Assembly: GCA_001606155.1 (NCBI GenBank)
Contig: LODT01000035.1
Span: 356,658-420,657 of the forward strand
Direction of reading: 5' to 3'
Length of the DNA: 64,000 bases
DNA from: Tieghemostelium lacteum
Taxonomy: Eukaryota
The notes under the pieces were generated by a model. That model saw only the letters and a list, made by a program, of their open reading frames with translations. It was not told where the DNA came from and did no database searches. How positions within the stretch are numbered: the stretch's first letter is position 1; every line of letters begins with the position of its first letter. Shown in pieces: positions 9,675-63,000 of this stretch. The translations under genes and the position numbers were made by a program.

Positions 9675-12600
9675 ATGGATGAAGTTGAGGTTGAAAAGAG
9701 AAAGAAGAGGTTAGAGGACCTCAAACAACAGAGTTTGGAATTGGAAAAAGAGGCTGCAGAGAGAGAACGACGAAATGAAGAAAGAAAAAAGCAAAGAGAA
9801 GAATCAGCTCGGTTGGCTTTGGAACAGGAAAAGAAAGAAGAAGAGGAAAGACAAAAGAAAAGAGATGAAAGACGTCGTCTCAGAGAGGAAGAAGAAAAGC
9901 AATTCAATGCAGAAATGGCTAGATTGGAAACTGAAAAATTAAATAGAAGAGCTGGAAATAGTGCTTCATCAACCCCATCACCACCATCTTCTATATCATC
10001 TTCTACTTCTACTTCAAGTCTCAATTTGGATGAGGACCCTGAAGTTAAGAAACAACAGGAGGAAAGAGAGAAACGTAATGAAGAGAGAAGAAAACAAAGA
10101 GAACAACAACAGAAAGAAATTGAATTGGAGGAAAAAAGACTTGCTGATGAAAGAGAAAAGAGAAGATTAGAGAGAAAACAACAAATGGAAAAGGATTCAA
10201 AGTCTATTCAGGATGTTGTTGTTGCAGCTAAAACTTCTTCAAATAACTTATCTGCTTTCTTACCTTCCAAAGATAAATCAAAAAAAGAGGATGAAGATAG
10301 ATTGGCAAAGGAAAAATTAGAGTCTGATAGATTAGCTAAAGAGAAAGCTGATAAAGCTGAACTTGATAGAGTGGAAAAAGAAAAAACTGATAAATTAGAA
10401 GCCGATAGAATTGCAAAAGAGAAGTCTGATAAAGAAGAACAAGAGAGACTGGCAAAAGCGGAGAAGGAAAGATTAGAAAAGATTGAATCTGATCGTTTGG
10501 AAAAAGAGAAAGCAGATAAAGAAGAACAAGAAAAATTGGCAAAGATTGAAGCTGACAGAATTGCCAAAGAAAAGATTGAATCTGATAGAATTGCAAAAGA
10601 GAAATCAGACAAAGAGGAAAAAGAGAGATTGGAAAAGGTTGAAGCTGATAGAATTGCAAAAGAGAATGCTGATAAAGAAGAACAAGAAAGATTGGCAAAG
10701 ATTGAAGCTGACAGAATTGCCAAAGAAAAAGCTGATAAAGAAGAGCAAGAAAGATTGGCAAAGATTGAAGCTGACAGAATTGCCAAAGAAAAAGCTGATA
10801 AAGAAGAACAAGAAAAATTGGCTAAAATTGAATCTGATAGAATTGCCAAAGAAAAAGCTGATAAAGAGGAAAAGAAAGATTGGCAAAGATTGAAGCTGAT
10901 AGAATTGCCAAAGAGAAATCAGACAAAGAAGAAAAAGAAAGATTGGCAAAGATTGAAGCTGATAGAATTACTAAAGAAAAAGCTGACAAAGAAGAAAAAG
11001 AAAGATTGGCCAAGATTGAATCTGATAGAATTGCAAAAGAGAAATCAGACAAAGAAGAAAAAGAAAGATTGGCTAAAATTGAATCGGACAGAATTGCAAA
11101 AGAAAATTCAGAAAAAGTACAACAAGAAAAAATCTCCAATTCAACCAAAATCACAGATAACTTTAAATTATCTATTGAAAAACAACTTCAGAGTCAACTA
11201 GCTGGTAAATTATCCGAACAATCACAACAGCAACAAGAGGCATCAACAACCACTTCATCACATGGACATTTAACCAATTTGACACTTGATAGACCAAAAA
11301 TGAAAACTGGTAGAAAATTACCAAGTAAAAACTTTAAAACACCAGGTTCAACAACAACTTCTACCTCTATTAAGGCTGATGAAAATAGTAATAATAACAA
11401 TAGTGGATCAATATTATCACAAGCATTGGAGACAGCAACAACATCAGAGAGTAAAAAGAAAATTGTTTTACCACCTGGTGCTGGAGGAATTCTAGGTTCT
11501 ATGGCATCACTTGCAATGGAAGCCCAAAAAAAGAAATTGGAAAAAGATAATAAACTCCTATCATCAGTTATCAATCAAGACCCAGATGCACCTGTATTTG
11601 TAAAAGGTAGATCACAATCAGTATCAGTAACATCTACACTAAAAGACAATACTGGAAAGTTTTTGAATCATAAAAAGACAGTAGACACCTACAGTGGTCA
11701 AAGAGTACGTTTAATTCAATGTAAAGGTAAAAAAAGAATTTTAAGCAAAGAAGTTGAAGTCTCTATTCAGTCACTGAATAAAATGGATTCATTTGTACTC
11801 GATTGTGGTATTGATGGATCCAATGTTGGTGGTGAATCTGCAGATTCTAGTGCACATTCTACCATTTATATATTCTATGGAAGTAAATCAACAGCCAATA
11901 AGAAATCTAAGGCAGTTGGTATAGCTGAGATTATTAAATCTCATGAAAGAGGTGGACATGCTACCATCATAAAACTAGATGAAGGTGACAATGATGAAAG
12001 ATTTTATAAACTATTAAAAGGTACACCATCAACACCTATCAATCCAGATGGTGGTGATGATCTTGAAGCTGAAACTCATTGGGCTCAATCATTTACATTA
12101 TCAAAATATGAGACCTCAACTCAAACCTTCTCATTGATTGATACAAAATCACTTAGTATGGAGTTACTAGCTAGTGATAGTTACTTTGTTTTAGATACCG
12201 TAACTGAATTCTATGAATGGTCTGGAAGAAATGTTGATATCAACCTCAAGGACACTTTCCACCAAAAAGCTCAAGAAAAATTAAAATCATCAAAACACCG
12301 ACAAGCATGGGTTGAAAGTGTGGTTTTATCTGAAGGTGGTGAAACTGTCCTCTTTAGGGAGAAATTCTTTGATTGGCCTGATCTCTCACATGAGGTTTCA
12401 CTCAATAGAATGGGTTTTGGTAAAAAGAAAGCATTTGCAGTCGCTATTCCATATGAAAAGAAATCACCTGCAAAGATGAATAATTTCGAAGCTAGAGAGA
12501 TGATAAGTCTGGAAAGAGCTGAAGAAGTCATGAAATCTGATGGTAAAGGTGAATATGAAATTTGGTATTTGGATCAAATGAAAATGTATCCTCTTCCTAA

Positions 12601-24671: not shown

Positions 24672-26926
24672 TTAATTTGAACAAGTTGGTTGATATTTAC
24701 ATTTTTGGGAGGTGGTAAGAACTAGGATACAACGATGAGGAGATTTACATGTTATATCAGCACAGGTAATACAATAATCTTGTTTAACACATTTAAAGAT
24801 TTGATTTGACTCTTCTTTACAATCATAACCTAAAGCACATGAATTTTGCAAACATGATCCACATTGATACTCATCAAATTCATTTACACAGATATGAGAA
24901 TCTGGTAAACATATTTGTCCTCCTGTGCAAATGCAATCATTTTTTTGTAGAACTTGAGTAGATGTAACAGTAGATAGCGATGTTGTTCCAGCAGTTGAAG
25001 TGACTGGTGGGGCTGGTGATGGTGTAGCAGTAGTACTTGTTGTAGCAGATGTAGTAGATGTACTGGCTGTAGTAGTACTAGTTGTAGCAGTACTAGTTGT
25101 AGCAGGGTCTGTTGTTGTAGCTGGTTTGGTGGATGTTGTGGTTATGGTTGGATTAGTTGTAAATATTTTAATTGTATCATTAATTATATTTAAATATGAA
25201 ATTGAAATTGTAGCAATGGATGAATTTCTATTTGTTTTAAACAAGACATTGGACAGACTTTGTAAAAAATTTGGATCTCTTTTGGTATTAAATACTTGTA
25301 GCTCACCATTTGAAATACTAACAACATCAGATGAAGTAGTGTTAGATGATGAAAATGATAATTGATCAGATGGATCAATACTATCCAAAACTTTAAAAGT
25401 AATGAATTGAACATTACAAGCAGAAGAATATGGATGAAAATTAGATTCTAAGAAACGATATTCACCATTGGGGTTATAGGCAATAGAGGTATTAATGATA
25501 TTCAACGATGCTGAGATTATAGTTTTTTCACCAAATAAAATATAATTCGTATGATTACTTTTAAATTGTAAAATTAAATCTTGAATACCATCATTATTAA
25601 AATCAGTCCAAGCTGAAAAACTAAATGCCGAGTATAATATTATAAAACCTCTACAATCACCAAATAATGGAGATGTTTTGATATCCAAATCATAAACAGC
25701 AGGTAATTTCATGGTGGTTCCATATACTCCCCAAGTAATTTGATAATTATAATCATTGCATGATATATCGGATATACCATCTCCATTAATATCTCCAACA
25801 TACATAGAGGTGCAAAATTTTTGAGGTGAAGAAATATCTCTGACCCATTTAACAACTTCAGATGAGTTACCACTGTTGATATCAAAATGAGATTCCCAAT
25901 TTCCACCTTTTTTACCATAAATCATATAAATTGAATTTGAATCATTACTAGCTACAGCCAAATCTTGTAATCCATCACCATTTAAGTCACCAAAACCAAT
26001 CTGAAGTGCATAGTCGAAAAAAATAGCCTCCATTTTAATTGTAAAACCAGTTGTACCATTTAATACTGGATTATATGGATTTGGATAAATTTTTACACCA
26101 AAACTAACAGTACCATTATCAGTATCCGAAAGTATTACTAAATCATCAATTCCATCATTATTCAAATCTCCACAACCAAGTTTTATAGAATGATCCTTAT
26201 TCATTATATGTCCATATGTTCCATTTGATACAAAGTTAGAATCAAATTTACCAGAATTGGTTGGAAACTTTTTACCATTATCAAGTCCATAGAGAACATA
26301 AATATCATCTCTGGTATTAAATATTAAATCTTTTATACCATCTCCATTACGATCGCATAAAACTTGAAATGAAGAGAAGTAGGCATGGAGAATATAAGAA
26401 GAATCAATTTCAAATCCATCAATTCCATCAAAAGTTGAAAAATCATTCTTAAATGGTCCTGCATGACCATAAATTATTTTTAATTGATTTTTTGTTGTAC
26501 GAAATATAATTTCATCATATCCATCATCATTTATATCTCCACATATAAAGTAATTCCGAAGATCTGTTATTTTAAAGTCAATACTGAAACCATTGACTCC
26601 ATCAATCATTGAAGCTGTTAAAGGTCTTTGGCCACCATATCTTGAGATATCACCAAAAAATACATATATTTTATTGGTTTGATAATTTGATATTATAAAA
26701 TCCTAATATTATATTTTGGTTAGAGTATATTTAAATACACTATATAAATTTCAACTTAAAAACCCACTTGTTTACCATCACCATTAAAATCAAAACCTCC
26801 AGTTTTAAATTCATAAAAAAATTCTAAACCATAACTATTAGTATCATTAAGTAAATTCTCTGATGATGGGAAACCAATATTTATAGATATCTTTAGAAAT
26901 AAAATTAGTAAGATAAATTTATACAT
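24672..26926 (-). CDS. Secreted FG-GAP/VCBS-repeat beta-propeller protein with a Thr-rich mucin-like linker and a C-terminal Cys-rich EGF-like module. Exons 26926..26768 and 26702..24672 (730 aa)
   Basis: Signal peptide MYKFILLILFLKISINIG. Repeated Ca-binding-like loops DxNxDGxxD (FDFNGDGKQDFII, GDINDDGYDEIIF, CDRNGDGIKDLIF, GDLNNDGIDDLVI, GDLNGDGLQDLAV, GDINGDGISDI, TDFNNDGIQDLIL). T/S/P-rich linker, then a 16-Cys tail. 65-nt intron (gtgggt donor, unusual). Confidence 0.7.
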
Positions 26927-28635: not shown

Positions 28636-31600
28636 TTATGGATTTAGACTGTGACTGGATTGTGAATCTCTAGATAATGATGAATTTAAAAAGGAACTGT
28701 TTTGCTTCTGAGAGTTAAAAGATTCTTGCCCACTGTTTACATATTGGAGATTTGACACTTTTGTAGTTTGTTTTATACCTGAGAGATTACCTTGATTGTA
28801 TGAATAGAAAATAGAGAGAGAAGGTATAATTTCGGTTAAAATTAGACCCAAGAAAGAGAAGACCACATTGGAAGGTTCAGCACCGACAAGAATCAATACA
28901 AATACACAATGAAGAATGAAACCAACTGAACACGCAAAAGTAATGATAAATATCTTTTGATGGTGATCAGAAGTTGAGCTTGACTCTGAGACTCTTTTAA
29001 CACGCATTGCCAAATATAGGCTACCACCCAAATAGATGAATGCAGCACCAATGACTAAACTGATAACAGCTTGAATAACTGCATATACAATACTGACAAC
29101 TCTTTGAGGTGTTGTGCTACTGACTGAAATGATAATTCTACCACCACAATCATCTTGAGGATCTTGTTCTGTGAAATGGAAAACTAAAACAATGATCATG
29201 AATAGTAAATACAGGATAATGTTAATTATCAAAACTACATAAGTTACTTGTTTCAAGAGATCTCTAGTTTTGGCTTTAGCTTTGATAATAATATACCATA
29301 ATACTACAATGATAGTGAATGATGTGAAATAGATAAAAGTTGGTAATACAACCAAGATATAGTCACCAACTGGATTATTGGATAGTGAACCAGATGGAAG
29401 AATGAAAAAGTATATAGCTCTGATAGTTATAAACAATGTAACGAATATAATAAGTAAATGAACCAATTTCAAAGGTTCTTTTAGTGTTTTTCTACGATAA
29501 AGAACTACAGCCATCTGAATGATACCCCACAGAGAGGTAATCAAAAAGATAACAGCCAATGTATAGAGTAAGCCTCTTGCAGTCTTATCAAACACTTCTT
29601 TGTTAACATCCTCCCAATTATCAAATCTATGTACTGGGAATATATTGATACTGGATTGTGAGTTGTTTGTTATGTCACCACATACATAGTTTACATCTGT
29701 CAATGTGACATTGTCTCTAATGGTTTTATGGTAGATTTCTAATTCCATAGGTACCAATTCAGTTGTATCGGTATTCTCAAGTGCAAAGTCAAGTACTGGA
29801 TAAGTTTTAGATTGTTTACTGTATTCTGATGTTTCAATAAAACATAGAGTCAGACTTTGAATACCTTGTGATGAAATTTTAATACCGTCGCTTAAAATTG
29901 TACCTATGATAGCTCCTTTGCCATTTAGGATACCATAGTTATCAGGTTTACGATAGCTAACAAATGAACTGGAAAGAGATTGAGCAGCAGTTGATTTATA
30001 CAATTGTTTACTTATTTGACTGATAAGTGCTGATGTACATGCAAATGTTATTGAATCTCTAGTGAAAATAATCTTTCCATTATTGAATTGGTACGATGAT
30101 TCTTCACCTTGACATGGCTTAGTTTCACCCAAAACCAATGCAGAAGTGGAGAAACACCCAGATCCACCATCACCAGAGCATGAACAGCTGATGGATTTCA
30201 AATTATCTTCAACTCTCTCCATTTTACATAGTGATTCAGATCGATAGAGATCGGCTATGTGAGTCTTTACAGAATCATCCAATTCTTCGTATAGGTATTG
30301 ATAGTTTGTTAGATTTTGTCTAGTTGTTGAAAATACGAATTTTGGTGACATCCATTGTGGTTTTACACTGATACCTGGGTACCAAGTTGCAGGAGTCCAC
30401 TCAAACATATTTTCCCATTGAGCAAATACATCTAATCCACAACTATTACATAGTTCTTCTGTCATTTGGTTAAATCTGAAGTTGTAAGGTAGATTAAAGT
30501 AATTGTTATCAAGAATCTTACAACCTTGTTTACTCAAGCATTCTGATTTGGATTTTGAAGGTACCCACCAATAGTATTCACTACCTTGGTCTGTACATTC
30601 TTGTTCATTCAAAGGTGCCAGGGTTATATTATAACTATCCAAAATGTATCCAGCAGCATCTAATGGTGAGAAATAGTATGGATAACATCCCAATGGTGAA
30701 TCTTTTTCCAAATCTATATTACATGTGGGTATAGGCCAATGAGTTTTCCAAATGAAATGACCTCTTACACATTTACCATGTTTCTCTGGATAGAAACTAA
30801 CTAAATCCTTTGAGAAGAAATAACTGTCTGAACATTCACCAGCTTGGTCACATTCTTCTTTACTCTGACAAAATATAGGTTCAGCAGCACAAACATTCCA
30901 ACCATCTAAACCTTGAGAGAAACATTGATCATATGGGTTGATGCTACAATTCACCCAAACAGTTGTTAAATCTGGCATGGTAACAACTAGACATTCACCC
31001 TCATTAGTAGCATTGGTATATACACAAACTTGATAATCAATATCCCAAGCCATTTGTGGTTGATTGCAATTTTCAGAGGCTATAATTTCTCTAATAATAC
31101 AAGTAGGGGCCATACCACCACATGTGTACCCACATGGTTTATCACAGTATCCAGACTGTTCACATGTAGCCTCATCAATTGTTGCATCATAGTAACCATT
31201 ATCAAATATACAAACATTTGTATTTGGGTTCTCGCAAGTAGCTTGACTTGTAATTTGGTCAAAAACAAAGCAATCAGTGATATTAGAAGAACAGTATCCA
31301 CAATAATCTGGAGCTTGTTCGCATTGGTCTTTACATTCCTGCACTGATAAATCTACATTGCAAGGAGCAGTATTACAGAATCCAATTTGATCTTCACAAA
31401 TGTCATTGTAGTTCACAGATGCTGTTACCCAGCCACCATAATTTCCATCATAGCATACATCATGTACAGTTTCACATGTCAAATCCATGCATTTTGGATA
31501 GGGGTAGCATCGATTTTCTTCTGTAAATTGGGAATAGTATTTATAAAATGTACGGTAACTCTGACCGGTGAAATATGTACAATCTTCATGTTTGAATGCT

Positions 31601-34026
31601 TCAAATACTTTATCTATAAAATCCTCTCCATTGTTGGTTGTGGTGTTCAGTTGATGTTTATAGATGATGGAGAATACATAGGGTTTAGGTAGACTTTCAA
31701 AAACACATTCCAAATAGGATCTGTCTTGCTGCTGTGCTGGAATCAGACATAATCTCGAGAAAAGGTCACATGTGTATCCATTAGTCCCACAATCAGCATC
31801 AGAATTACAAGGTAGAGATTTTAGAACGCCTTTACATTCTCTTAGAATACTAATCATTTCAATATTAGTTTGATCTGGTAAGAAACCTGGTACATCACAA
31901 TCAGAGGTGGATGATAGTGAATTTTGGTATTCATCCAAAACGGATATGGTGCATTCGGAAGATGAGCATTGATCATTTACCAAATCCTCTCTGACACCAA
32001 TAAAATCAGTTTGGTCTACTGATAGTAATCTAGGTACGCAGCAATGAAAGAATGTCAAACTACTATTGCAACATGGATCCAAATCAAATCTAGGGTCACT
32101 ATTGGAATAGGGACAAAATGTAGTAAGTTTCTCTACTGAGGTTGTATTACTATTCAATAGTGAAGAAGCTTGATTTTGACAGGATACCCATTCGTCTGTC
32201 AGTGTCAATGTATTGATTTTAAATACTACAGAGTTCAATTTAATAAAATCTGTAGTTGAGAAGAGTGTATCTTCCTCTTTGTTCAATCTTTCAGTTACGT
32301 TTAAGAAACCATCATAGTTACAAGTGAGATTTGTCAATGTGTAACCAAAGTCTCCTGAAAGTGCATTTCCATTCTGATCAACTAGTTTATAGAGAAATTG
32401 TAGTTTGGCATTGACTATTTCTGATAAATCAGCATTTACAGTTTTCTTATTACCCTGTCTGATAGATAACAAATAAGCAGCTTTATAATGATTCTTTTGG
32501 GGTTGATTGGCATTGTCTTCATAGGTTATACCATAGAATCTCTTATCTTGAGATAATATACTTGGCAGTGGCCATATTGGAAGAATCTGAGTGAATGGGT
32601 ATTCAACTGAAAATGGATTACATCTAGACCAGACATTACACCCAATACTGTCCCCAGAAGGTAAAAGCAATCTAGTAGTTTGTACTAAATTATATGCAGA
32701 TGCTTGTGGCGACCCATCTGTAATTGAAATCAATTCATTGTAACCTTGTGTTGTGATGGTAAAAGAGTAATTTGATCTGTAGAATGTAGATACACCAATA
32801 TATAATACCAATGGATCACCATTAGGAAGAGGTGATAATTTTAATGTCAAATAATCATCACGTTCATTTGAGCAATCCCATTTAGCATTACTCAATGAAT
32901 TTGGGAATGGTTTAGATGGATCATCACTAATGAAAAAATCAATATCCTCTTGAAGTGATGGAAATCCAAATGCAACAACTTGTGGTGTATTTACTGAATA
33001 GGTGTAATAATGCATCTCTTCATCAGCACCTTCACCTTGTACTAAAGATCCATCAACTACACAATCATGTGTATTTAATACTTTTGGACAACTAGTTGCA
33101 ATAGTAGAATTAGATACCTCTATAATTTTTTTATAATAAAATTATTAATAATATAACTCGATAGAATGTAACATCTAACCATTACATACCGGAAGATAAA
33201 ATTTCAAAGGAAAATTGTGCCATTGGTGATTGTGCAACAATGGTAATGAAATAAGTTGATTTAGTCCATTGTCCAGCTGAAAGAAACTCTTGATTATCAG
33301 TTGGACATATATTTAATTCAAAACTGTATGCTGTATCTGTAGAAGGTGAATTTCTTCCAAAATAAGAGAAATAAGGGTATGGAGAGACATTCATTGTTAC
33401 CTTACCTTGATTTGGTGATAATAGAACCCTGATACCTTCACATATTTCTGAATTTGCTTTATAACGTAGATTTAATACACCACTATCTTCAATTGTGAAA
33501 TCATATTTTTTATTTCTTTCAACGACCTCCCAAGTTTCATCTGGATTGCAAAAGTATAGATAGAGTTCACTGCCATCACTGGCGATATTAATCTCAGTGG
33601 GACATGGTGTACATGAACTACTATTAGAAGCTGTTATACCACATTGGTCTCCTGTTCCTGTATAATCACATGAACAATCTACAGCTTCTTGTTGGCATTC
33701 ATAGTTGGGACATGATACTGATCTGTACCTGTAAAGTTCTCGGTCAAATTCCAAATCAATTAATGCATAATTTAACTCAACACCCAGTACATTAGCTTGT
33801 TTTTCTAAAATACTACCAGATTGTAGATTAAATCCAAACACTCTTAATTCTATAATTTTTGATCACAACGTGCGTTAGTACTCTTTTTACAATGATGGTG
33901 AAAAAAATTATGTGGGGGTTGGGGGTAATTTTTAAAACCATTATTAAAGTCAAAAAATATTGTGATATTACCATTTGATAATAAATATAGTAGTAATAGT
34001 ACAAGTAGTGAGTATTTGTTTCTCAT
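28636..34026 (-). CDS. Very large (1732 aa) seven-transmembrane protein with a signal peptide and a ~1300-aa cysteine-rich ectodomain; family unknown. Exons 34026..33972, 33849..33190, 33119..28636
   Basis: Signal peptide MRNKYSLLVLLLLYLLSN. Introns are 122 nt (gtaatatc...ttatag) and 70 nt (gtatgtaatgg...ttatag), with phases consistent. The ectodomain has more than 90 Cys and many N-glycosylation sites. Seven hydrophobic helices in the last ~350 aa (LLYTLAVIFLITSLWGIIQMAVVLY ... FSFLGLILTEIIPSLSIFY), followed by a Ser-rich tail. Confidence 0.7.
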
Positions 34027-34365: not shown

Positions 34366-35557
34366 ATGAAAATTATTTATCTTGTAGTTTTATTAATATT
34401 ATGTTTTTCTCTAATTGTGGAGTCTAATGAAATTTCATCTCAGAGAAAATCAAATAAATCTAAGGAATTAAGTAAACAATCATCAGCATTCAAAAAAAAA
34501 GATTTTAAAAGAGATCAACAGGAGTTAAGTAATCTTAAAGAACTTCAACAACAACAAGAAATTGTATTCCATATTGCTGGTACTTTGGATTTACTCTATG
34601 GTATTTTTGTAGGATTTGAAGTAAGTTTATTTTTATTTTTATATCTATAAGTTCACTTATACTAAAATTATTTTAAAATAGAATGGTGTTAATTCATATG
34701 CATCAGCATCAAAATGTACAGAGGCAACTGATAAACTCTATAGTATTATTTCTTTGATGTTAGCTGATTTACAACAAGGTGAATTTCCAAAATTATCAAG
34801 CAGATTTGAAACTTTGAATTCCACATACTATGAAAATGTTGATTCACTGCTCAAATGTATTCCAGAACTATTTATAAATAGATTTGGTAAAGTTTATGAA
34901 GACTTAATTACATTAGGACCAGCCTATTTTATAAATGTTGCAAAGAATACCGTTTACAATCATAAATTAAAATCTTTTAGTATCTATAGAGGTATTAGAA
35001 GCTGTGCTTCTTCTGGTGATATTGTAGGTCTTGGTAAATATCTTGGTGATTTTATTTCACTGGCATATTATGATAGATTCCTTGTTAAGAAAACAATTCA
35101 AGAAATTCTTGAAGGTGATGTCATTGAAGATATCCTACAGCAACAAGAACAAGAAAAAGTAGAACAACAACAACAAGTACAAGTACAACAGGAACAAATA
35201 CAACAAGAACAAGTACAACAAGAACAAGTGCAACAAGAACAAGTGCAACAAGAACAAGAACAAGTACAAGAACAAGTACAAGAACAAGTACAAGAACAAG
35301 TACAACAACAAGAACAAGAACAAGTACAACAAGAGCTAGTGCAACAAGAACAAGTACAACAACAAGAACAAGAGCAAGTACAACAAGAGCAAGTACAGCA
35401 AGAACAAGTACAGCAAGAACAAGTACAACAAGAGCTAGTGCAACAAGAACAAGAACAAGTACAAGTACAACAAGAACAAGTACAACAAGCACAACTCCCA
35501 CAATCCCAAGTAGTTGAGGAGATTGTTGAGGAAAAGGAAGTAGTATCACAGCTTTAA
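34366..35557 (+). CDS. Secreted protein with a C-terminal (EQVQQ)n glutamine/glutamate-rich repeat tail. Exons 34366..34620 and 34682..35557 (376 aa)
   Basis: ATG at 34366 with signal peptide MKIIYLVVLLILCFSLIVES. Donor GFE|gtaagt, 61-nt intron, acceptor aaatag|AATGGT. About 35 hexapeptide-like EQVQQ(E) repeats encoded by an 18-bp DNA repeat (caagaacaagtacaacaa). Confidence 0.6.
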
Positions 35558-38730: not shown

Positions 38731-40320
38731 ATGTTTAAATTCTTCTTTGATAAAAACAAAGACTCTAATAACAATAGTAATAATAATAGTAATAACAACG
38801 CTAACAATAGCAATTTGACAGAGTCAGATGGTACAGTAAAACTCAGTAATAGTATATGTTCAAGTGTACATCAAAAGAGTATCGATCTTTATTGTAAATT
38901 TTGTAACCTACCAGTGTGTTCTAAATGTTTAAAAGAACACTCTAGTCACTCTGTAAAAGTAGTAGATATTGAAGATGAATTCGCTGAATGTATGAAAGCT
39001 TCTGGCAAGATCTCTGACAATTTGAAGGAATTCATCAAGGCTAAAAACAACCAAAAAGTGGTAAACGAAGATTCTTTCAAAAAGAAAGTTGACGAGCAAT
39101 ACCATAAAGAATTAGAAAAGATTGCTAATTACTTTAGAAATATTCACGATGCTCTTCATTTCAAAGAAGTTGAACTAAAGAGAGAACTAAAATCTCACTA
39201 TGAAGACAACTTTGAAGAGTTCACAAAGATCATCTCCAAGATTGATCATGAAATTGACCACAGTAAATCATTGATCAAGACCATTGAGGAAAACAAAGGC
39301 AACTATGAACAAACTGAAGATAAATACTCATTGTTGCACAGATACATTCACAGCAAGAATCTCTTGGAAAAACAGGAACAAACTGATGAATTCAAGTATC
39401 AATCCTACAGTTTCATAGAATCTATTAACAAATTTGAGGATCTCTTGCGTTTATTGGAAATTAGAAATAATAATGCCCTCAACAAGTTTGTTTACATCTA
39501 TGGTAATGGTGCATTCGAAAGACTCAATCTCACCAAGAAAACACTTGAGAAGATTGAAATTAAAGGAGAGAAGTTCAATACCAATCATGGTATTTTCAAG
39601 GCTATGATTGCAACAAATGACTATCTCTACATTTTCAAGAGAAAGAATTTCCTCAAATACGATCCAAAGACATTTGAGTGGACAATGGGTAACACTCCAG
39701 TAGACTTTGATGGTGGTGACTGGCAATCAGTTGAATATGATGGTAAGAACCATATCTATTTGTTTGGTGGTATTCGTGATGGTGTAAACCACAGTGATGT
39801 CTCAAGATTCAACATCACAACAGAAACATTTGAACTCAGAATCGCCAAAACTCGTATTCCTATTAGATTTTCAACTCCAAGAATTGCAGGTGATGCCATT
39901 TACATTCTTGGTGGTGTAGCCTCAGAGTCACCAGATCCAATTGCCACTTTGGATAAATATGATATCAAGACTGGTCAAACTACTTTAGTCAGAAACTTTG
40001 CTCCAGATGGTTACATTGAATTGACATGTCTATGCTATGTACCAAAAAGTAATAGTCTATATATTATATCTAGAGAACATAAATTCTTTAGATATGAATT
40101 GACCACCAACACCATTCACCCATTACAACCACCTATTAAAGATGTCAAACAATATTACACTGAATTGACATTTGATGGAGACCACACAATCTATTGTATC
40201 AATAAGGATAATATCCATGAATTCAATATCAATACTCAAATATGGACTAAAATTGAAACTCCTAAATTCCATAATTTTGATCTCTATCTTTATGCAATTG
40301 CTTTCTCACCAAGATTCTAA
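38731..40320 (+). CDS. B-box zinc finger + coiled coil + C-terminal Kelch-type beta-propeller protein (TRIM-like without a RING), single exon, 529 aa
   Basis: Poly-Asn N-terminus. B-box CSSVHQKSIDLYCKFCNLPVCSKCLKEHSSH. A long helical region. The C-terminus has repeated hhhFGG motifs (HIYLFGGIRDG, AIYILGGVASES) typical of Kelch blades. Confidence 0.65.
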   Translation: MFKFFFDKNKDSNNNSNNNSNNNANNSNLTESDGTVKLSNSICSSVHQKSIDLYCKFCNLPVCSKCLKEHSSHSVKVVDIEDEFAECMKASGKISDNLKEFIKAKNNQKVVNEDSFKKKVDEQYHKELEKIANYFRNIHDALHFKEVELKRELKSHYEDNFEEFTKIISKIDHEIDHSKSLIKTIEENKGNYEQTEDKYSLLHRYIHSKNLLEKQEQTDEFKYQSYSFIESINKFEDLLRLLEIRNNNALNKFVYIYGNGAFERLNLTKKTLEKIEIKGEKFNTNHGIFKAMIATNDYLYIFKRKNFLKYDPKTFEWTMGNTPVDFDGGDWQSVEYDGKNHIYLFGGIRDGVNHSDVSRFNITTETFELRIAKTRIPIRFSTPRIAGDAIYILGGVASESPDPIATLDKYDIKTGQTTLVRNFAPDGYIELTCLCYVPKSNSLYIISREHKFFRYELTTNTIHPLQPPIKDVKQYYTELTFDGDHTIYCINKDNIHEFNINTQIWTKIETPKFHNFDLYLYAIAFSPRF

Positions 40321-40417: not shown

Positions 40418-43400
40418 TTACATGATAATACATTTTTTTGAATTTGATTGTGAATCATTTTCTGAGTTATCATCGGTGTCCATAACTTTTTCTTGATCAT
40501 TTTCAAAATTAATTGGTTTGGGATTTTCATTTTGGGGTACTGTTTTGTTGGTTATGGGAGAAGGAAGTTCTTGGTCAATTTCCATTCTCTTATTTTTTGA
40601 TGGTGATGGAGGAGGTTTTTTTGGAGATTTATTTGTATCAGGAGCCCTCAGATTGATTTCTTGTGTTTTGTGAGTAGGAGTAACTGGTTGAGGTACTATA
40701 GGTTGAGATTCTACACTAGATTTCATTAACCTGAATTTTTTTGGTGGTTTTTTGGAGTCAGCTTGCATTTCTAATTTATATTTTTCAAGGGACTCTTTTA
40801 ATTTCATTTTTTTAGAATCATCTAGAGTTGGGTGATTTTCAGGTAAATGAGATTTAATAGCAACTACTCTACTTTCAAATTTAGCGACTGGGGCAGAACA
40901 TTGTTTATATAAAAGTGAAATGGAGGATTTTATCTCTTGGGTGTAAAATTCTATTAAATTTACAGAATCTACACAAGGTGAGATGGAAAATAAGTGTAAA
41001 TTGGAGCACAGAAATATTGGTGATTGAACATAGGATATACCCAAAATCAATCTTAAATATTCAACTAAAATTTGATTTTGATATCTGTCCAATAAATTTA
41101 CCCTAAATGGAATGTTAATTAGAATGATAGGTAGTTTTTGTAAAAATAGAAGGTCTACATACTTTGCTCCGATGTTTGGTTGTAATAAAGTTAAATAGAA
41201 TGAAATTAAATTTTCAAAAATTCCTTTTGTGTTTTGAGAGTGGACAAAGTAAGTTAATACTTTTGTAAAACTATTTACAAATAATTCTGAATTCTTTTTA
41301 CTTTTCAGAACAAAGCCTTGGAAGAATGTAGAGAGGATTTGTTTGATACCAAGCGAGGTATCAGAGGTTTCTTTGATAAAGAACAGAATGATTAGAGAGT
41401 TTAACAGCTTTTGATCTTTGATAATGTTATTATAGAATAGTTTGGCAATACCTTCAACTTTTAAAAGTTTAAATTGACTTTCCTCTTTAGATTCTTGGTC
41501 ATTGGTATCTTTTATCAATAGAACATTATCAAATAGTATATTTAGGAACTTGTTACAAAAGTTACCACTAGTACTAAGTAAAAGGAGTTCCTTTTCTGTT
41601 TCTGGTTGATCTATGCTAATGATATCATCATTCTTTTGCATTGCTTTTCTTTGCTCTATTAGAGCGTTATTCATACCATCTTCAGTCAAAAGATCAAAGC
41701 ATGCTGTAGCTACAACCATTTGAACTTTTATGTGGTCTTTGGAAAGTGCAGATAAGTATAGATCCAACATTCCATTATTCTTATAGAGAAAGTTTGGATC
41801 ATCATCCAATAGGATATAGAGGCAATTACATTTAAATGCCTTTTCTCTAATTTCAGGTTTTTCGGATTGGATTGAATCAACAATATAATCCTTTAAACCA
41901 TCAATTACAGGATCACGTATTGTCTTATTAGTGTTTGACAATATATATGATATAATAGTCAAAGAATGAAGTTTTCTCAGGTTTTTAATCTCTTCTTCTT
42001 CTTCTACCCTATATACATCTTCAATTGGATCTTGAATGTCAGATAATACATTCAATATATGGTCATAAAATTCCTTTTCTGTTTTACAATATTTTCTAAA
42101 TATCAATAATATTGATGATTTTAAATCAATATCAAAATTTAGATCTAATAGCTTTCCCTCTGAACAGATATGGTGTTAGCCTTATTAACTAATAAAAATA
42201 GAAAAATTAAGTTACATACCTAAATAATTTAATAATATTGAATCATTAAAATATTCATATTGATTTAAAATCAAGAGAAGTTGTTTAAAGATAAATGGTG
42301 AGGATTCAAATTTCATTGTGAGGAGTAGATGCTGTTGGGGGTCTGTAATAAGAGTTTCTTTAATCTCTGAATACAATACAACAGTTTCTTTCTTTTGAAG
42401 AAATTCCAAATAACATCTCCATAACAACGCATATTCTGGTGTTATAGTCTCTGCAAACCCTTTTAATTCTGTGCCACATTTAGATAACCTCTGTCCTAGA
42501 TCTTTAAAGAAATCATTCTTGGGAAGGATATTCTGGTCTAATAATATATTGATAATATCTATTGAGAGTTTTTCATTCTCTTCCACTTTAATAAGCTCAA
42601 GAAGAGTAATTATATTATCATCTATAGATTTCATCCAGCTTGATGCCAACATGGATGTGAAAGCTGATGTGACAATAGGGTCTCTATCACTACAACCACA
42701 ACTCAACAAATCAATTAGATGTTTATGAATTCCATTGAATACTTTTAACTTTACCTGACTGATTAGAATATAAATTGACTTTCTAACCCTGGGTTTGATA
42801 TCTCTTGCTCTAATTAACAGGGTTGGTAGATTTGATTTAGTAACCACCATTGTTTGTATAATTGTAGATCTAACATCTTCAGATCCTTCTTTTGATAACA
42901 TATCAAAAAACAATCTAACTACTGGATCATCTTCATCTTGTGTTTGTAATTTCTGTAAAACTTTAACAGCTACTGTTCTGACTGAGGTCTTTCTATCCTG
43001 TAATCTAATTTTCATCTTTTCAAATATCTCATTGAATACTTCTTCCCTATAGAATTATAATTAGATTTAAAGTATACGTTCAAATTATTAGTATTACTTA
43101 CTCTACTTCAGTACTTTCATTGAAATTTGAGAATATCTGGTAAATTAATAGACAAGATTTAAAACGAATCTGAATTTTTGAGTTTTCAGTACATTTTAAT
43201 AGATGATTAATCAAATTATAAAAGAATATATCTTCCAGTGGTAATTGATCTTTTTCATCAATACTAAAGAGTTCTAGTGATAATCTTGCAATAAAAGAAA
43301 AGAATCTATCGATAGATGGATCTCTATTCTTTACAACCAATGCTTTATTAACTTGTTCTATGAGGAATTTTTTAAAATACTCTGTTACTTCATTATTTTT

Positions 43401-60065: not shown

Positions 60066-63000
60066 ATGAGTAATCCATCTAGTAAGTAGACTCCTTTTTT
60101 AAGCTAATAATACATACAATAACTCACACCACAAAACAGCACCCAAACCTGCAACAAGTAAATTTCAGGGTATAGTAGTAGATAGTTCGAGAACTACTCC
60201 AAATTTTAAAATCCCAGCTAAAACCAATAGAACTTTACCAACCCCACCAGGTGCTACTACAGCACCAACACCAACAACACCAACAACAACAGCAATTTCA
60301 CCAGACACCACTAATAATGTAACAACACAGCAAAAGCCCAGTGAAGATATTAATACACCACCATCATCATCATCAGTAACTACACCAACAATTAAACCCC
60401 CTGGCCTTAAACCAGTTGTAAAAGTTGCACCTAGACCTGTTTTAAAAACACCAGCAACTACACCAACATCAAATGTAAATAGTGAATCAATCGGATCTAC
60501 AACAACAACAACAACATCAACACCAACAACCACACCCACACCTACACCACCAATATCCAAACCCCTTGTACCAAAACCATCGGCAACTCCATTATTAAAA
60601 CCTGTAATAAAAACATTTCCTCCACAACCAAGTACACCTACACCATCAACAACGAATAATGTTACTCCTATAACAACTCCAACTCCAACCCCAACTCCAA
60701 TATCAACAAATACTAGTTCAAATAGTACCGAAAATAAACCACCAAGTCCAACATCAACAACAACACCAACTACTACAAAAGGATCAGCTTTAAATAACTT
60801 TAAATGTAAACCATTACCATCAGTTGGTAAACCAATGCCAACTGTAACTGCAACTACACCTACATTGACATCAACCAATACCACAAGTACACCAGTTGAA
60901 GTTACACCAATTAATACACCACCAGTAACACCAAAATTAGAATCACAGGTATCCCAACCAATAACACAAATCAATACTACTAGTGCTAATATTGGTGGAA
61001 ATTTAGTAAGATCACCTAGTAATACAAGTATTAGTAAATCACCAAGTACAAGTCAATCAACACTTGTTAGATCAATTAGTGCACAAAAGGGATTAGATAA
61101 TATTGAATTGGATCACCCAATAAGTGAAACTGCTAAAAAAGCAACTGAAGAGATTGCCAAAGGTAAAAAGAAATATGAACGTGTTAGAGTATTGTCAAAC
61201 AAGAAAGGTGATTTCAATTCACTTAATCTAACTAGAGGTGATATCATTGATGTCATTGAAAAAGGTGAAAAAGATACCTATTTTGGAAGTAATGGATATA
61301 AGACTGCTCAGTTTTCAATCAGTAATACAAAATCATTATATCCTTTGGAAAACAATCCACCAAAGACCTCTGTAAAGGCCATTGCTATCAAGGATATTAA
61401 ATCCAATAGAAATTTTACAATTATTCGTGGTGATATATTGTGTATACTTGAAAAGAGATCTGAAACAGTTTCAGCAGGTAGAGTTAAAGTTGGACTTGAT
61501 GGCTGGGGTGAAATGGGAGAGTTTCCACTTGACAGCATTCGTGTGATTAATGATCAAGAGTATTTATTATACTCTGATTTACTGAATACCATTATAGAGG
61601 TTTCTGAAAAATTAATGGATCCTGAATCTTTGATTAATTCGGGTACAAAAGAATCTGAAAAGGAAATTGAAAAACGTCAATTGGCACTTCGTGACAAGGT
61701 AAAGAATGTACAAATCATTCGTGAGAAGATTTTAGTTTCATCAGATGCACAGGTGATTGCACCTTTACAAATAGAACTTAGAAAAGATATTGAAACTATT
61801 CGATCTATTCTCTCTAATGAATTCTATATTATCAACGATCGTGGTCAGATTTGTACTGATGTAAATACATCTCCATTGACTATACTCAAAGAACATTACC
61901 AACTCTCACAAGAGTCACAGGAAAAGAAATGGTCTTCGAATAAACAACAAAAGGATTTGGTAGATGTTACTATTCCAACAGGTGCCTCATCCTCAACTAC
62001 CAATGGAAAGAAACTCTGGGATTATGGTCAATTGGTTATCGATATAAAGTTCTCAAGATGCACACTACCAAAAAAGAATTTGGAATTCTATTTCAGTTTA
62101 TATAATTTCACACAATCAAAGTATCTAACTGAACAGGTTCAAGTTAGTTTTGACCAATCTTCAACAACCTCAACTAGCTCACCAAGTGCCATGAAATTCC
62201 TTTTCAAGAATATTGAAAGTACTGATATCTCTGAGGATGTATGTCTAGTTTGTAAAGTCATTAGAAAAGGTTCCATTAAAGACCAAGATGAAACTAAAGA
62301 GTTAGATAAGAAAAAAGGTAAATCCCCAGATACCTCTCAAAACTCTCAAACTCAGACATTTAGAAGACCTTATGCATATAGTGCATTTAAATTCACTAGT
62401 GCCATATTTGAGAGTCAAGTAGGTTTGGAAAGAGAAGTCAACCTCCAATTCTATACCAGTCAAAATGAAAGTACTTTTCTTACTATTCCCGATATTCTCA
62501 TGAGAGGTAATGAAGAAGAAATTAAGAAACAAATAGAACCAGTTCCAAAATTGGCAGTTGGAGTCAGTCAATCTATTCTACCTGTAAGCATTAGTTTCTA
62601 TGATCAAGGATGGGAGAAATTTGTTGAAAAATATCCAATATCATATAGTTGGATAAAATCAGAGAAATTAGCTCACAAGATTCTTTTGGCAGACAAGATA
62701 TTTCAATTTTATCTTACTATTGAATCTGGTAAATTCACCCAAGGTAAAAAACTGGAATTGTGTCTTAAAGTCAGATCAGATAACGGCGATGTAATTCAGA
62801 ATTGTGTATCACTTGGTATGGGCTCTCCATGGAGTTCTGAGATTAAGACTATTGTTTGTTATAATAACACCACTCCTGTTTGGAATGAAACTATACAATT
62901 TGCAATTCCACCTGAACTATTCCTTAAAAGTCATTTACTCTTTACCATTAGAAACTGTTCTAATAAGGAAAAGGATAAAAACAGTATATTTGCATTCAGT

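Follow-up and report, generated by a model that had tools for sequence, protein, structure and literature searches.

The seven-transmembrane (7TM) proteins TOM1, TOM3 and THH1 of plants are about 290 amino acids long and have essentially no ectodomain. TOM1 has been studied for some 25 years as a virus susceptibility factor, and to our knowledge its own cellular role has yet to be settled. TOM1 and TOM3 are seven-pass host factors of tobamoviruses at internal membranes and act with TOM2A and ARL8; one study has them co-purifying with ARL8 (PMC3234234). The status of TOM1 as a receptor is disputed in the literature. Recent work places the TOM proteins outside the canonical G-protein-coupled receptor (GPCR) classes, and the TOM1/3 family was inferred from BLAST to be specific to plants (PMC2530877). 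The papers found to name their Pfam domain, PF06454, all concern plants. Here we describe DLAC_07869, a gene of the dictyostelid Tieghemostelium lacteum (GenBank contig LODT01000035.1), which places a 7TM domain of this family behind an ectodomain of about 1,400 residues. The species was formerly called Dictyostelium lacteum. The gene lies in a 64,000-nucleotide stretch of AT-rich eukaryotic DNA, called the window below, whose positions are used throughout. A search of the literature by locus tags, by the D. discoideum orthologue and by the Pfam domain found no mention of DLAC_07869, of its orthologues or of any PF06454 protein outside plants. We favour, at about an even chance of being right, the reading that DLAC_07869 is an adhesion-GPCR-like sensor on a TOM1-type 7TM, probably uncleaved, in which the ectodomain would relay to the helices.

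By its profile match, the seven-helix core is a clear member of the THH1/TOM1/TOM3 family (PF06454, formerly DUF1084). The match spans residues 1405-1677 with an E value of 1.2e-11 and a score of 45 bits against a gathering cut-off of 25, and it covers profile positions 4-255 of 273. The only other Pfam match at E<=10 is an insignificant one to DUF4271 (E 2.1), obtained with the isolated 7TM. PF06454 stands in the precomputed Pfam column of seven of the nine other dictyostelid homologues, and it reaches E<=0.01 unaided in only 6 of 25 divergent relatives. Residues conserved across the family lie in TM2, TM3, TM5 and TM7 (R1472, P1498, Y1584 and E1668, with the motif LPTF in TM3). As modelled, the bundle is GPCR-like in fold, which does not imply coupling to a G protein. 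An earlier sequence-only reading of this DNA had seen a giant 7TM protein with "no obvious family". That description has to be given up: the 7TM is PF06454, UniRef already names the protein "THH1/TOM1/TOM3 domain-containing protein", and the ectodomain has hundreds of relatives. The same reading saw no obvious match to the cAMP-receptor, frizzled, GABA-B, latrophilin or TM9 types, and this is borne out because none of those Pfam models matches, even at E<=10.

DLAC_07869 is one real three-exon gene and not two. Rebuilt from the raw sequence, it runs on the minus strand from 34026 to 28636, with GT..AG introns. The exon phases join cleanly into a product of 1,732 amino acids, identical over its full length (100%) to the NCBI hypothetical protein DLAC_07869, so the exon model of the sequence-only reading, phases included, was exact. 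Exon 1 encodes the hydrophobic stretch LLVLLLLYLL and then reaches its GT donor. All ten dictyostelid homologues align in the same order from the exon 2 region through exon 3 to the tail, and the N-terminal domain and 7TM occur together in 34 fetched relatives, including one Trinity transcript of Protostelium nocturnum. We found neither N-terminal exons that belong to another gene nor an assignment of the helices to a transporter family. Among dictyostelids the open frame is conserved at 39-63% identity, and a conserved frame of 4.4 kb in a genome of about 30% GC is far beyond chance. A tblastn search found no second copy of the gene in the window.

Residues 1-18 are a signal peptide. The ectodomain, residues 19-1420, contains 76 cysteines (5.4%) and 16 NxS/T sequons, all of the latter N-terminal to TM1. 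Seven hydrophobic helices follow between residues 1421 and 1677, as judged from hydropathy and from seven helices in the AlphaFold2 model. Lysines plus arginines number 4, 4 and 3 in the odd loops and 0, 1 and 0 in the even loops, in keeping with the positive-inside rule. The loop pattern and the signal peptide together argue for an N-out/C-in topology, with the large domain outside and the tail cytosolic. Thus the predicted order of signal peptide, cysteine- and glycan-rich ectodomain, seven helices and Ser-rich tail (27% Ser) stands; of the cysteine-rich ectodomain of about 1,300 residues, the cysteine richness holds and the length was set about a hundred residues too low. Seven helices behind a large N-terminal domain are reminiscent of TMEM8, and a PAQR/TMEM8/CREST-type membrane hydrolase with a large ectodomain had been offered as one alternative. 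That likeness is all that speaks for it; a CREST 7TM fold with conserved His/Asp/Ser metal-site motifs was looked for and not found, and we regard such a hydrolase as barely credible.

The ectodomain is, by its profile matches, a large extracellular module that has no Pfam match and yet has hundreds of relatives, so it is no orphan. Pfam finds nothing in it, EGF, TIG and lectin repeats included, whether the whole protein, four ectodomain pieces or 25 diverse relatives are scanned; the earlier statement that such repeats are lacking is therefore correct. When the PDB was searched by sequence and by profile, using the entire protein, an ectodomain profile and a juxtamembrane-plus-7TM profile, only chance matches came up (E>0.2). 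A BLASTP self-comparison detected no internal repeat in the protein. The idea that residues ~100-236 and ~270-363 are two pre-peptidase C-terminal (PPC)-type beta-sandwich repeats was dropped as unsupported, since Pfam matched neither piece at E<=10 and hhalign of the two blocks gave a probability of 0.4%.

A profile of residues 222-1420, built from nine dictyostelid sequences, was searched against 1.84 billion representative proteins. Of the 823 representative clusters matched at E<=1e-3, 445 reach E<=1e-10 and 150 reach E<=1e-30; many of the matches are 1,300-1,800 amino acids long and align across most of the profile. Local hidden Markov models (HMMs) were then run on 164 fetched proteins, mostly the top matches. 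In 104 of these the same 7TM sits directly behind the juxtamembrane domain. The model of the exon 2 region matches 36, of which 34 also have the 7TM. In a few relatives the ectodomain module belongs to a single-pass protein, and one such protein has FG-GAP repeats.

Conservation within the ectodomain is uneven. The first ~500 residues are the most variable part between lineages. The exon 2 region, with its conserved motifs IDCSCDYT, RYKAN..CEG and CPTDN, shows the weakest conservation outside dictyostelids, with an identity of 0.14 and an occupancy of 0.69 when aligned broadly. The Cys-rich core is the region hit by most of the 823 profile matches: 25 cysteines, from C574 to C1203 and including those of the DPCCN motif, are invariant in 25 members that share only about 20% identity. 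The segment of residues 1178-1232 is 64% identical among dictyostelid orthologues, level with the 7TM, and is modelled in part as a helix, at low confidence, with a predicted local distance difference test (pLDDT) score of 34-56.

Members with an organism name all belong to Evosea: eight dictyostelids, Physarum, Planoprotostelium, Protostelium and Clastostelium. The D. discoideum orthologue is DDB_G0270774 (Q55BY2), and that of Heterostelium album is PPL_12624. The remaining matches come from metagenome or read-archive assemblies. When 20 distant matches were looked up by exact sequence, six had a usable organism name, and all six were Amoebozoa. On the favoured reading, the family is a conserved one of giant seven-helix receptors in type I orientation, so far named only in Evosea (Amoebozoa).

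Directly before TM1 lies the juxtamembrane domain, residues 1233-1403. Two independent structure predictions span it, one together with the 7TM and the other with the upstream 250 residues. Both give a beta-sandwich of 13 strands and two short helices with a pLDDT of about 80-87. PMC3321182 describes subdomain B of the GAIN domain as a twisted sandwich of 13 strands and two small helices immediately before TM1, and the element count of our model equals it. Among known structures, the fold neighbours of the model by similarity score are the GAIN domain of CD97 (8.5 and 7.6), UNC5B ZU5 (8.3), CELSR1 GAIN (8.2), CARD8 FIIND (7.8), BAI3 GAIN (6.9), NLRP1 FIIND (6.5 and 6.1), GPR126 and GPR97 (6.1), GPR110 (5.6), GPR56 (5.5) and latrophilin-3 (5.2). 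Foldseek gives a single high-probability match, again the GAIN domain of CD97 (0.99, E 0.019). To go by the title of Liao et al. 2014 as cited in PMC11697300, GAIN and ZU5 represent a single autoproteolytic fold of ancient origin. The GAIN/ZU5 class is indicated by the position and size of the domain, by its element count and by its fold neighbours, and the modelled domain resembles the ZU5/GAIN/Nup98 autoproteolytic beta-sandwich fold.

In 93 relatives, C1331 and C1385 of this domain are conserved in 100% of sequences. Also conserved are the motif N..GA.IG..LGDG, the last strand YFPIxR (F1399 in 73%, R1403 in 78%) and the linker of ~13-20 residues into TM1, with the last strand beginning 22-26 residues before TM1. 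This spacing resembles the Stachel geometry of adhesion GPCRs. Together with the fold class and the conserved strand and linker, it speaks for an autoproteolytic tethered-agonist receptor, in which the domain would be cleaved at a non-canonical site and the FPIxR strand, laid bare once the ectodomain is shed, would act as agonist. The turn that precedes the last strand holds no conserved His or nucleophile (Ser/Thr/Cys) pair, however, and none of the cleavage motifs HL/T, HF/S (HFS) and SF/S, and we think cleavage of this kind improbable. With no conserved motif for cleavage, the GAIN-like domain most likely functions intact. The GOLD-domain seven-helix proteins (GPR107/108, TMEM87, Wntless-like) likewise have a beta-sandwich immediately ahead of their 7TM, so that DLAC_07869 could be read as a cargo or trafficking protein with an oversized luminal domain, an idea already raised in the sequence-only reading. 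The combination of a Lung_7-TM_R-type 7TM with a GOLD-like sandwich was tested for and is not present, and we give this possibility very little credence.

The GPCR-fold model of the 7TM and the GAIN-subdomain-B/ZU5-like sandwich before TM1 lend support to an adhesion-GPCR-like sensor, which had been the other alternative in the sequence-only reading. Several results weigh against it. A canonical GPS site is absent: H-[LIVM]-[ST] occurs nowhere in the protein, and its only CxC lies ~200 residues upstream of TM1. Thus, of the GPS/GAIN features looked for before TM1, the GPS fails and the sandwich is modelled, weakly seconded by Foldseek, which has no match at E<=0.001. The turn preceding the last strand is unconserved in the 93 relatives. 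The GPS, GAIN and ZU5 Pfam models match none of the 25 relatives scanned, and Pfam recognises no adhesion domain in the protein. No clear six-helix GAIN subdomain A is seen; upstream there is just the one long helix of low confidence (pLDDT 34-56). Both structure models derive from 13-sequence alignments, with a mean pLDDT of 66-67 and values of 33-81 per 10-residue block in the helices. Finally, the 7TM family was founded on plant TOM1, which the literature describes as a host factor associated with the tonoplast, and TOM1 was the sole candidate that did not bind the G-alpha subunit GPA1 in split-ubiquitin assays (PMC2530877).

The last point leads to the alternative that we take most seriously, though we still consider it rather unlikely: an endolysosomal or vacuolar membrane scaffold whose 7TM recruits an Arl8-type GTPase on the cytosolic side, the giant glycosylated domain being luminal and protective or cargo-binding. 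The only functionally studied PF06454 members, plant TOM1 and TOM3, are host factors that co-purify with ARL8 (PMC3234234), TOM1 shows no G-alpha binding (PMC2530877), and heavy glycosylation and disulfides would suit a luminal domain too. However, a surface sensor is typically built in this way, from an ectodomain module that is conserved across a large family but variable in its distal part, and from a GAIN/ZU5-like domain seated on a 7TM. Single-pass proteins carry the module as well, in one case together with FG-GAP adhesion repeats, and no YxxPhi or dileucine sorting motif is obvious in the tail when it is read by eye.

What is established here is the gene model, the topology indicators, the family to which the 7TM belongs, how broad the ectodomain family is, and which folds the predicted models resemble. 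If DLAC_07869 is a sensor of the adhesion-GPCR-like kind, it may operate as follows. The signal peptide would send the N-terminus out of the cytosol, and ~1,400 residues would fold into a glycosylated, disulfide-locked scaffold, with a variable outer part of ~500 residues and an inner part of ~900 built on the invariant cysteine skeleton. This ectodomain might bind an external or luminal ligand, a surface or matrix. Binding or strain would be relayed through the juxtamembrane sandwich to the helix bundle, which would change conformation and engage a cytosolic partner through its basic loops and through two Ser-rich parts, loop 5 and the tail, that could be phosphorylated. The effector could be a heterotrimeric G protein or, by analogy with plant TOM1, a small GTPase of the Arl8 type, and candidate locations are the plasma membrane and the endolysosome.

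A further proposal, which we hold only tentatively and think doubtful, is that these proteins form a separate adhesion-type class of receptor, with a GAIN/ZU5-fold domain coupled to a non-class-B TOM1-type 7TM behind an undescribed module of ~900 residues. If this were so, GAIN-to-7TM coupling, in which a juxtamembrane beta-sandwich serves mechano- or contact-sensing, would predate the adhesion GPCRs of animals or would have arisen independently, and the short TOM1 proteins found in plants would be reduced relatives of ancient cell-surface sensors. If the GAIN-like assignment is true, a 7TM combined with this fold would occur outside class B receptors and polycystins as well. Although DLAC_07869 had been annotated before, its family has gone undescribed; that family is large and conserved and is open to experiment. 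It shows the TOM1-type 7TM in a receptor-like context, behind a signal peptide and a conserved ectodomain of giant size and with a GAIN/ZU5-like domain atop the bundle, and it makes the role of this 7TM testable in the genetically tractable Dictyostelium discoideum (DDB_G0270774). The coordinates of the gene and of the protein features are collected in the table.

Table. Features of DLAC_07869 in the window (nt, nucleotides; aa, amino acid residues of the product).
Feature	Position	Strand	Details
Exon 1	34026-33972	minus	55 nt; start codon and signal peptide, aa 1-18 and first base of codon 19
Intron 1	33971-33850	minus	122 nt, phase 1, GT..AG, GTAATATC...AATTATAG
Exon 2	33849-33190	minus	660 nt; N-terminal ectodomain region, aa 19-239
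Intron 2	33189-33120	minus	70 nt, phase 1, GT..AG, GTATGTAA...AATTATAG
Exon 3	33119-28636	minus	4,484 nt including stop; remaining ectodomain, 7TM and tail
Conserved Cys-rich ectodomain core	30265-32337	minus	aa ~500-1190; DPCCN motif at 586-590
Strongly conserved segment	30139-30303	minus	aa 1178-1232, HIADLYRSE.LC.MERVE.NL.SISCSCSG..G..CF
Juxtamembrane beta-sandwich	29626-30138	minus	aa 1233-1403; ZU5/GAIN-subdomain-B-like in the models; last strand is the conserved FPIxR
THH1/TOM1/TOM3-type seven-transmembrane domain	28804-29622	minus	aa 1405-1677
TM1-7	29500-29574, 29395-29469, 29281-29361, 29170-29247, 29011-29103, 28885-28956, 28804-28869	minus	
Cytoplasmic tail	28639-28803	minus	aa 1678-1732, 55 aa, 27% Ser; conserved proximal motif G.KQ.T....L.YV

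The next gene downstream, at 24672-26926 in the same orientation (minus), codes for a secreted protein with FG-GAP repeats. Its signal peptide lies on an exon near 26756-26926, and its main exon of 645 amino acids is followed by a Thr/Ser-rich linker and a Cys-rich end. In one distant relative of the receptor (P0101), FG-GAP repeats are fused to the same ectodomain module. The adjacency of the receptor and FG-GAP genes is not conserved in H. album or D. purpureum, and for that reason a functional link between the two was set aside and the arrangement treated as coincidence. On the other side, a divergent open reading frame starts at 34367 on the plus strand, ~340 bp upstream of the receptor ATG, with a leader that resembles a signal peptide (MKIIYLVVLLILCFSLIV); the intergenic stretch common to the two genes is very rich in AT. 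Beyond it are a B-box plus Kelch-repeat protein (38731-40320, plus) and a condensin Cnd3-domain protein (40418-42106, minus). These two neighbours are of an ordinary housekeeping type and do not suggest a receptor gene cluster.

Elsewhere in the window there are two low-complexity coding stretches. At ~10300-11100 on the plus strand, tandem repeats of ~63 nt encode 21-residue Lys/Glu-rich units (AKIEADRIAKEKADKEEQERL), and these repeats account for a strong purine skew in the composition profile; they probably belong to a coiled-coil repeat protein. At ~60180-61100, also on the plus strand, a long Thr/Pro-rich stretch is mucin-like and has a GC skew of -0.51.

Some gene models and loci of relatives are unusual. 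One dictyostelid-like protein of 3,464 amino acids (P0018) holds two complete receptor copies head to tail, each with ectodomain, juxtamembrane domain and 7TM; either gene prediction has merged a tandem duplication or the fusion is real. The new models of D. discoideum and D. dimigraforme (P0006 and P0007) are extended at the N-terminus by a CENP-X-like sequence (PF09415), which is missing from the AX4 model DDB_G0270774. D. purpureum has CENP-X as a gene of its own, ~2 kb upstream of the orthologue (locus L002, 954-1330), and the extension is probably a fusion of gene models. In H. album (contig GL290992.1; locus L001, 1790-5955), a 7tm_3 (GABA-B-like) receptor gene lies ~4 kb upstream of PPL_12624, an arrangement that was seen once and is probably a coincidence.

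DLAC_07869 can be set against several known systems. With plant TOM1, TOM3 and THH1 it has in common a homologous 7TM domain, an N-out seven-helix topology and the prediction of a GPCR-like bundle, and it differs from plant TOM1 in the additional signal peptide, the ~1,400-residue ectodomain and the GAIN/ZU5-like domain. With the catalogued dictyostelid GPCRs (cAR/Crl, Fsl, Grl, LrlA) it shares the organisms and a 7TM receptor-like architecture, but it matches none of their Dicty_CAR, Frizzled, 7tm_3 and 7tm_2 models. The main text of a 2023 phylogeny-wide catalogue of social-amoeba GPCRs, which includes D. lacteum, mentions neither TOM1 nor THH1, and the catalogue reports amoebozoan family 2 GPCRs to be without any detected GAIN domain (PMC10445921).

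The ZU5/FIIND domains of ankyrin, UNC5, CARD8 and NLRP1 are cytosolic, and some cleave themselves at HFS or SF/S, whereas the sandwich of DLAC_07869 would be extracellular or luminal and disulfide-bonded and has no self-cleavage motifs. Polycystin-1 (PKD1) has 11 TM helices, PKD and REJ modules and a canonical GPS. Pfam detects no PKD, REJ or GPS feature in DLAC_07869. PKD proteins are, according to PMC3321182, membrane proteins outside class B with a GAIN domain in the extracellular region. The adhesion GPCRs of class B2 (latrophilin, CD97, BAI, CELSR, GPR56) have a 7tm_2 signature, which Pfam does not find in the 7TM of DLAC_07869 at E<=10. Their GPS motif, HL/T site and usual adhesion domains are also absent, subdomain A is not evident, and identity is 7-12% over aligned residues. 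Since the 7tm_2 and GPS tests fail, DLAC_07869 is not a class B2 adhesion GPCR; what it has in common with these receptors is the overall layout.

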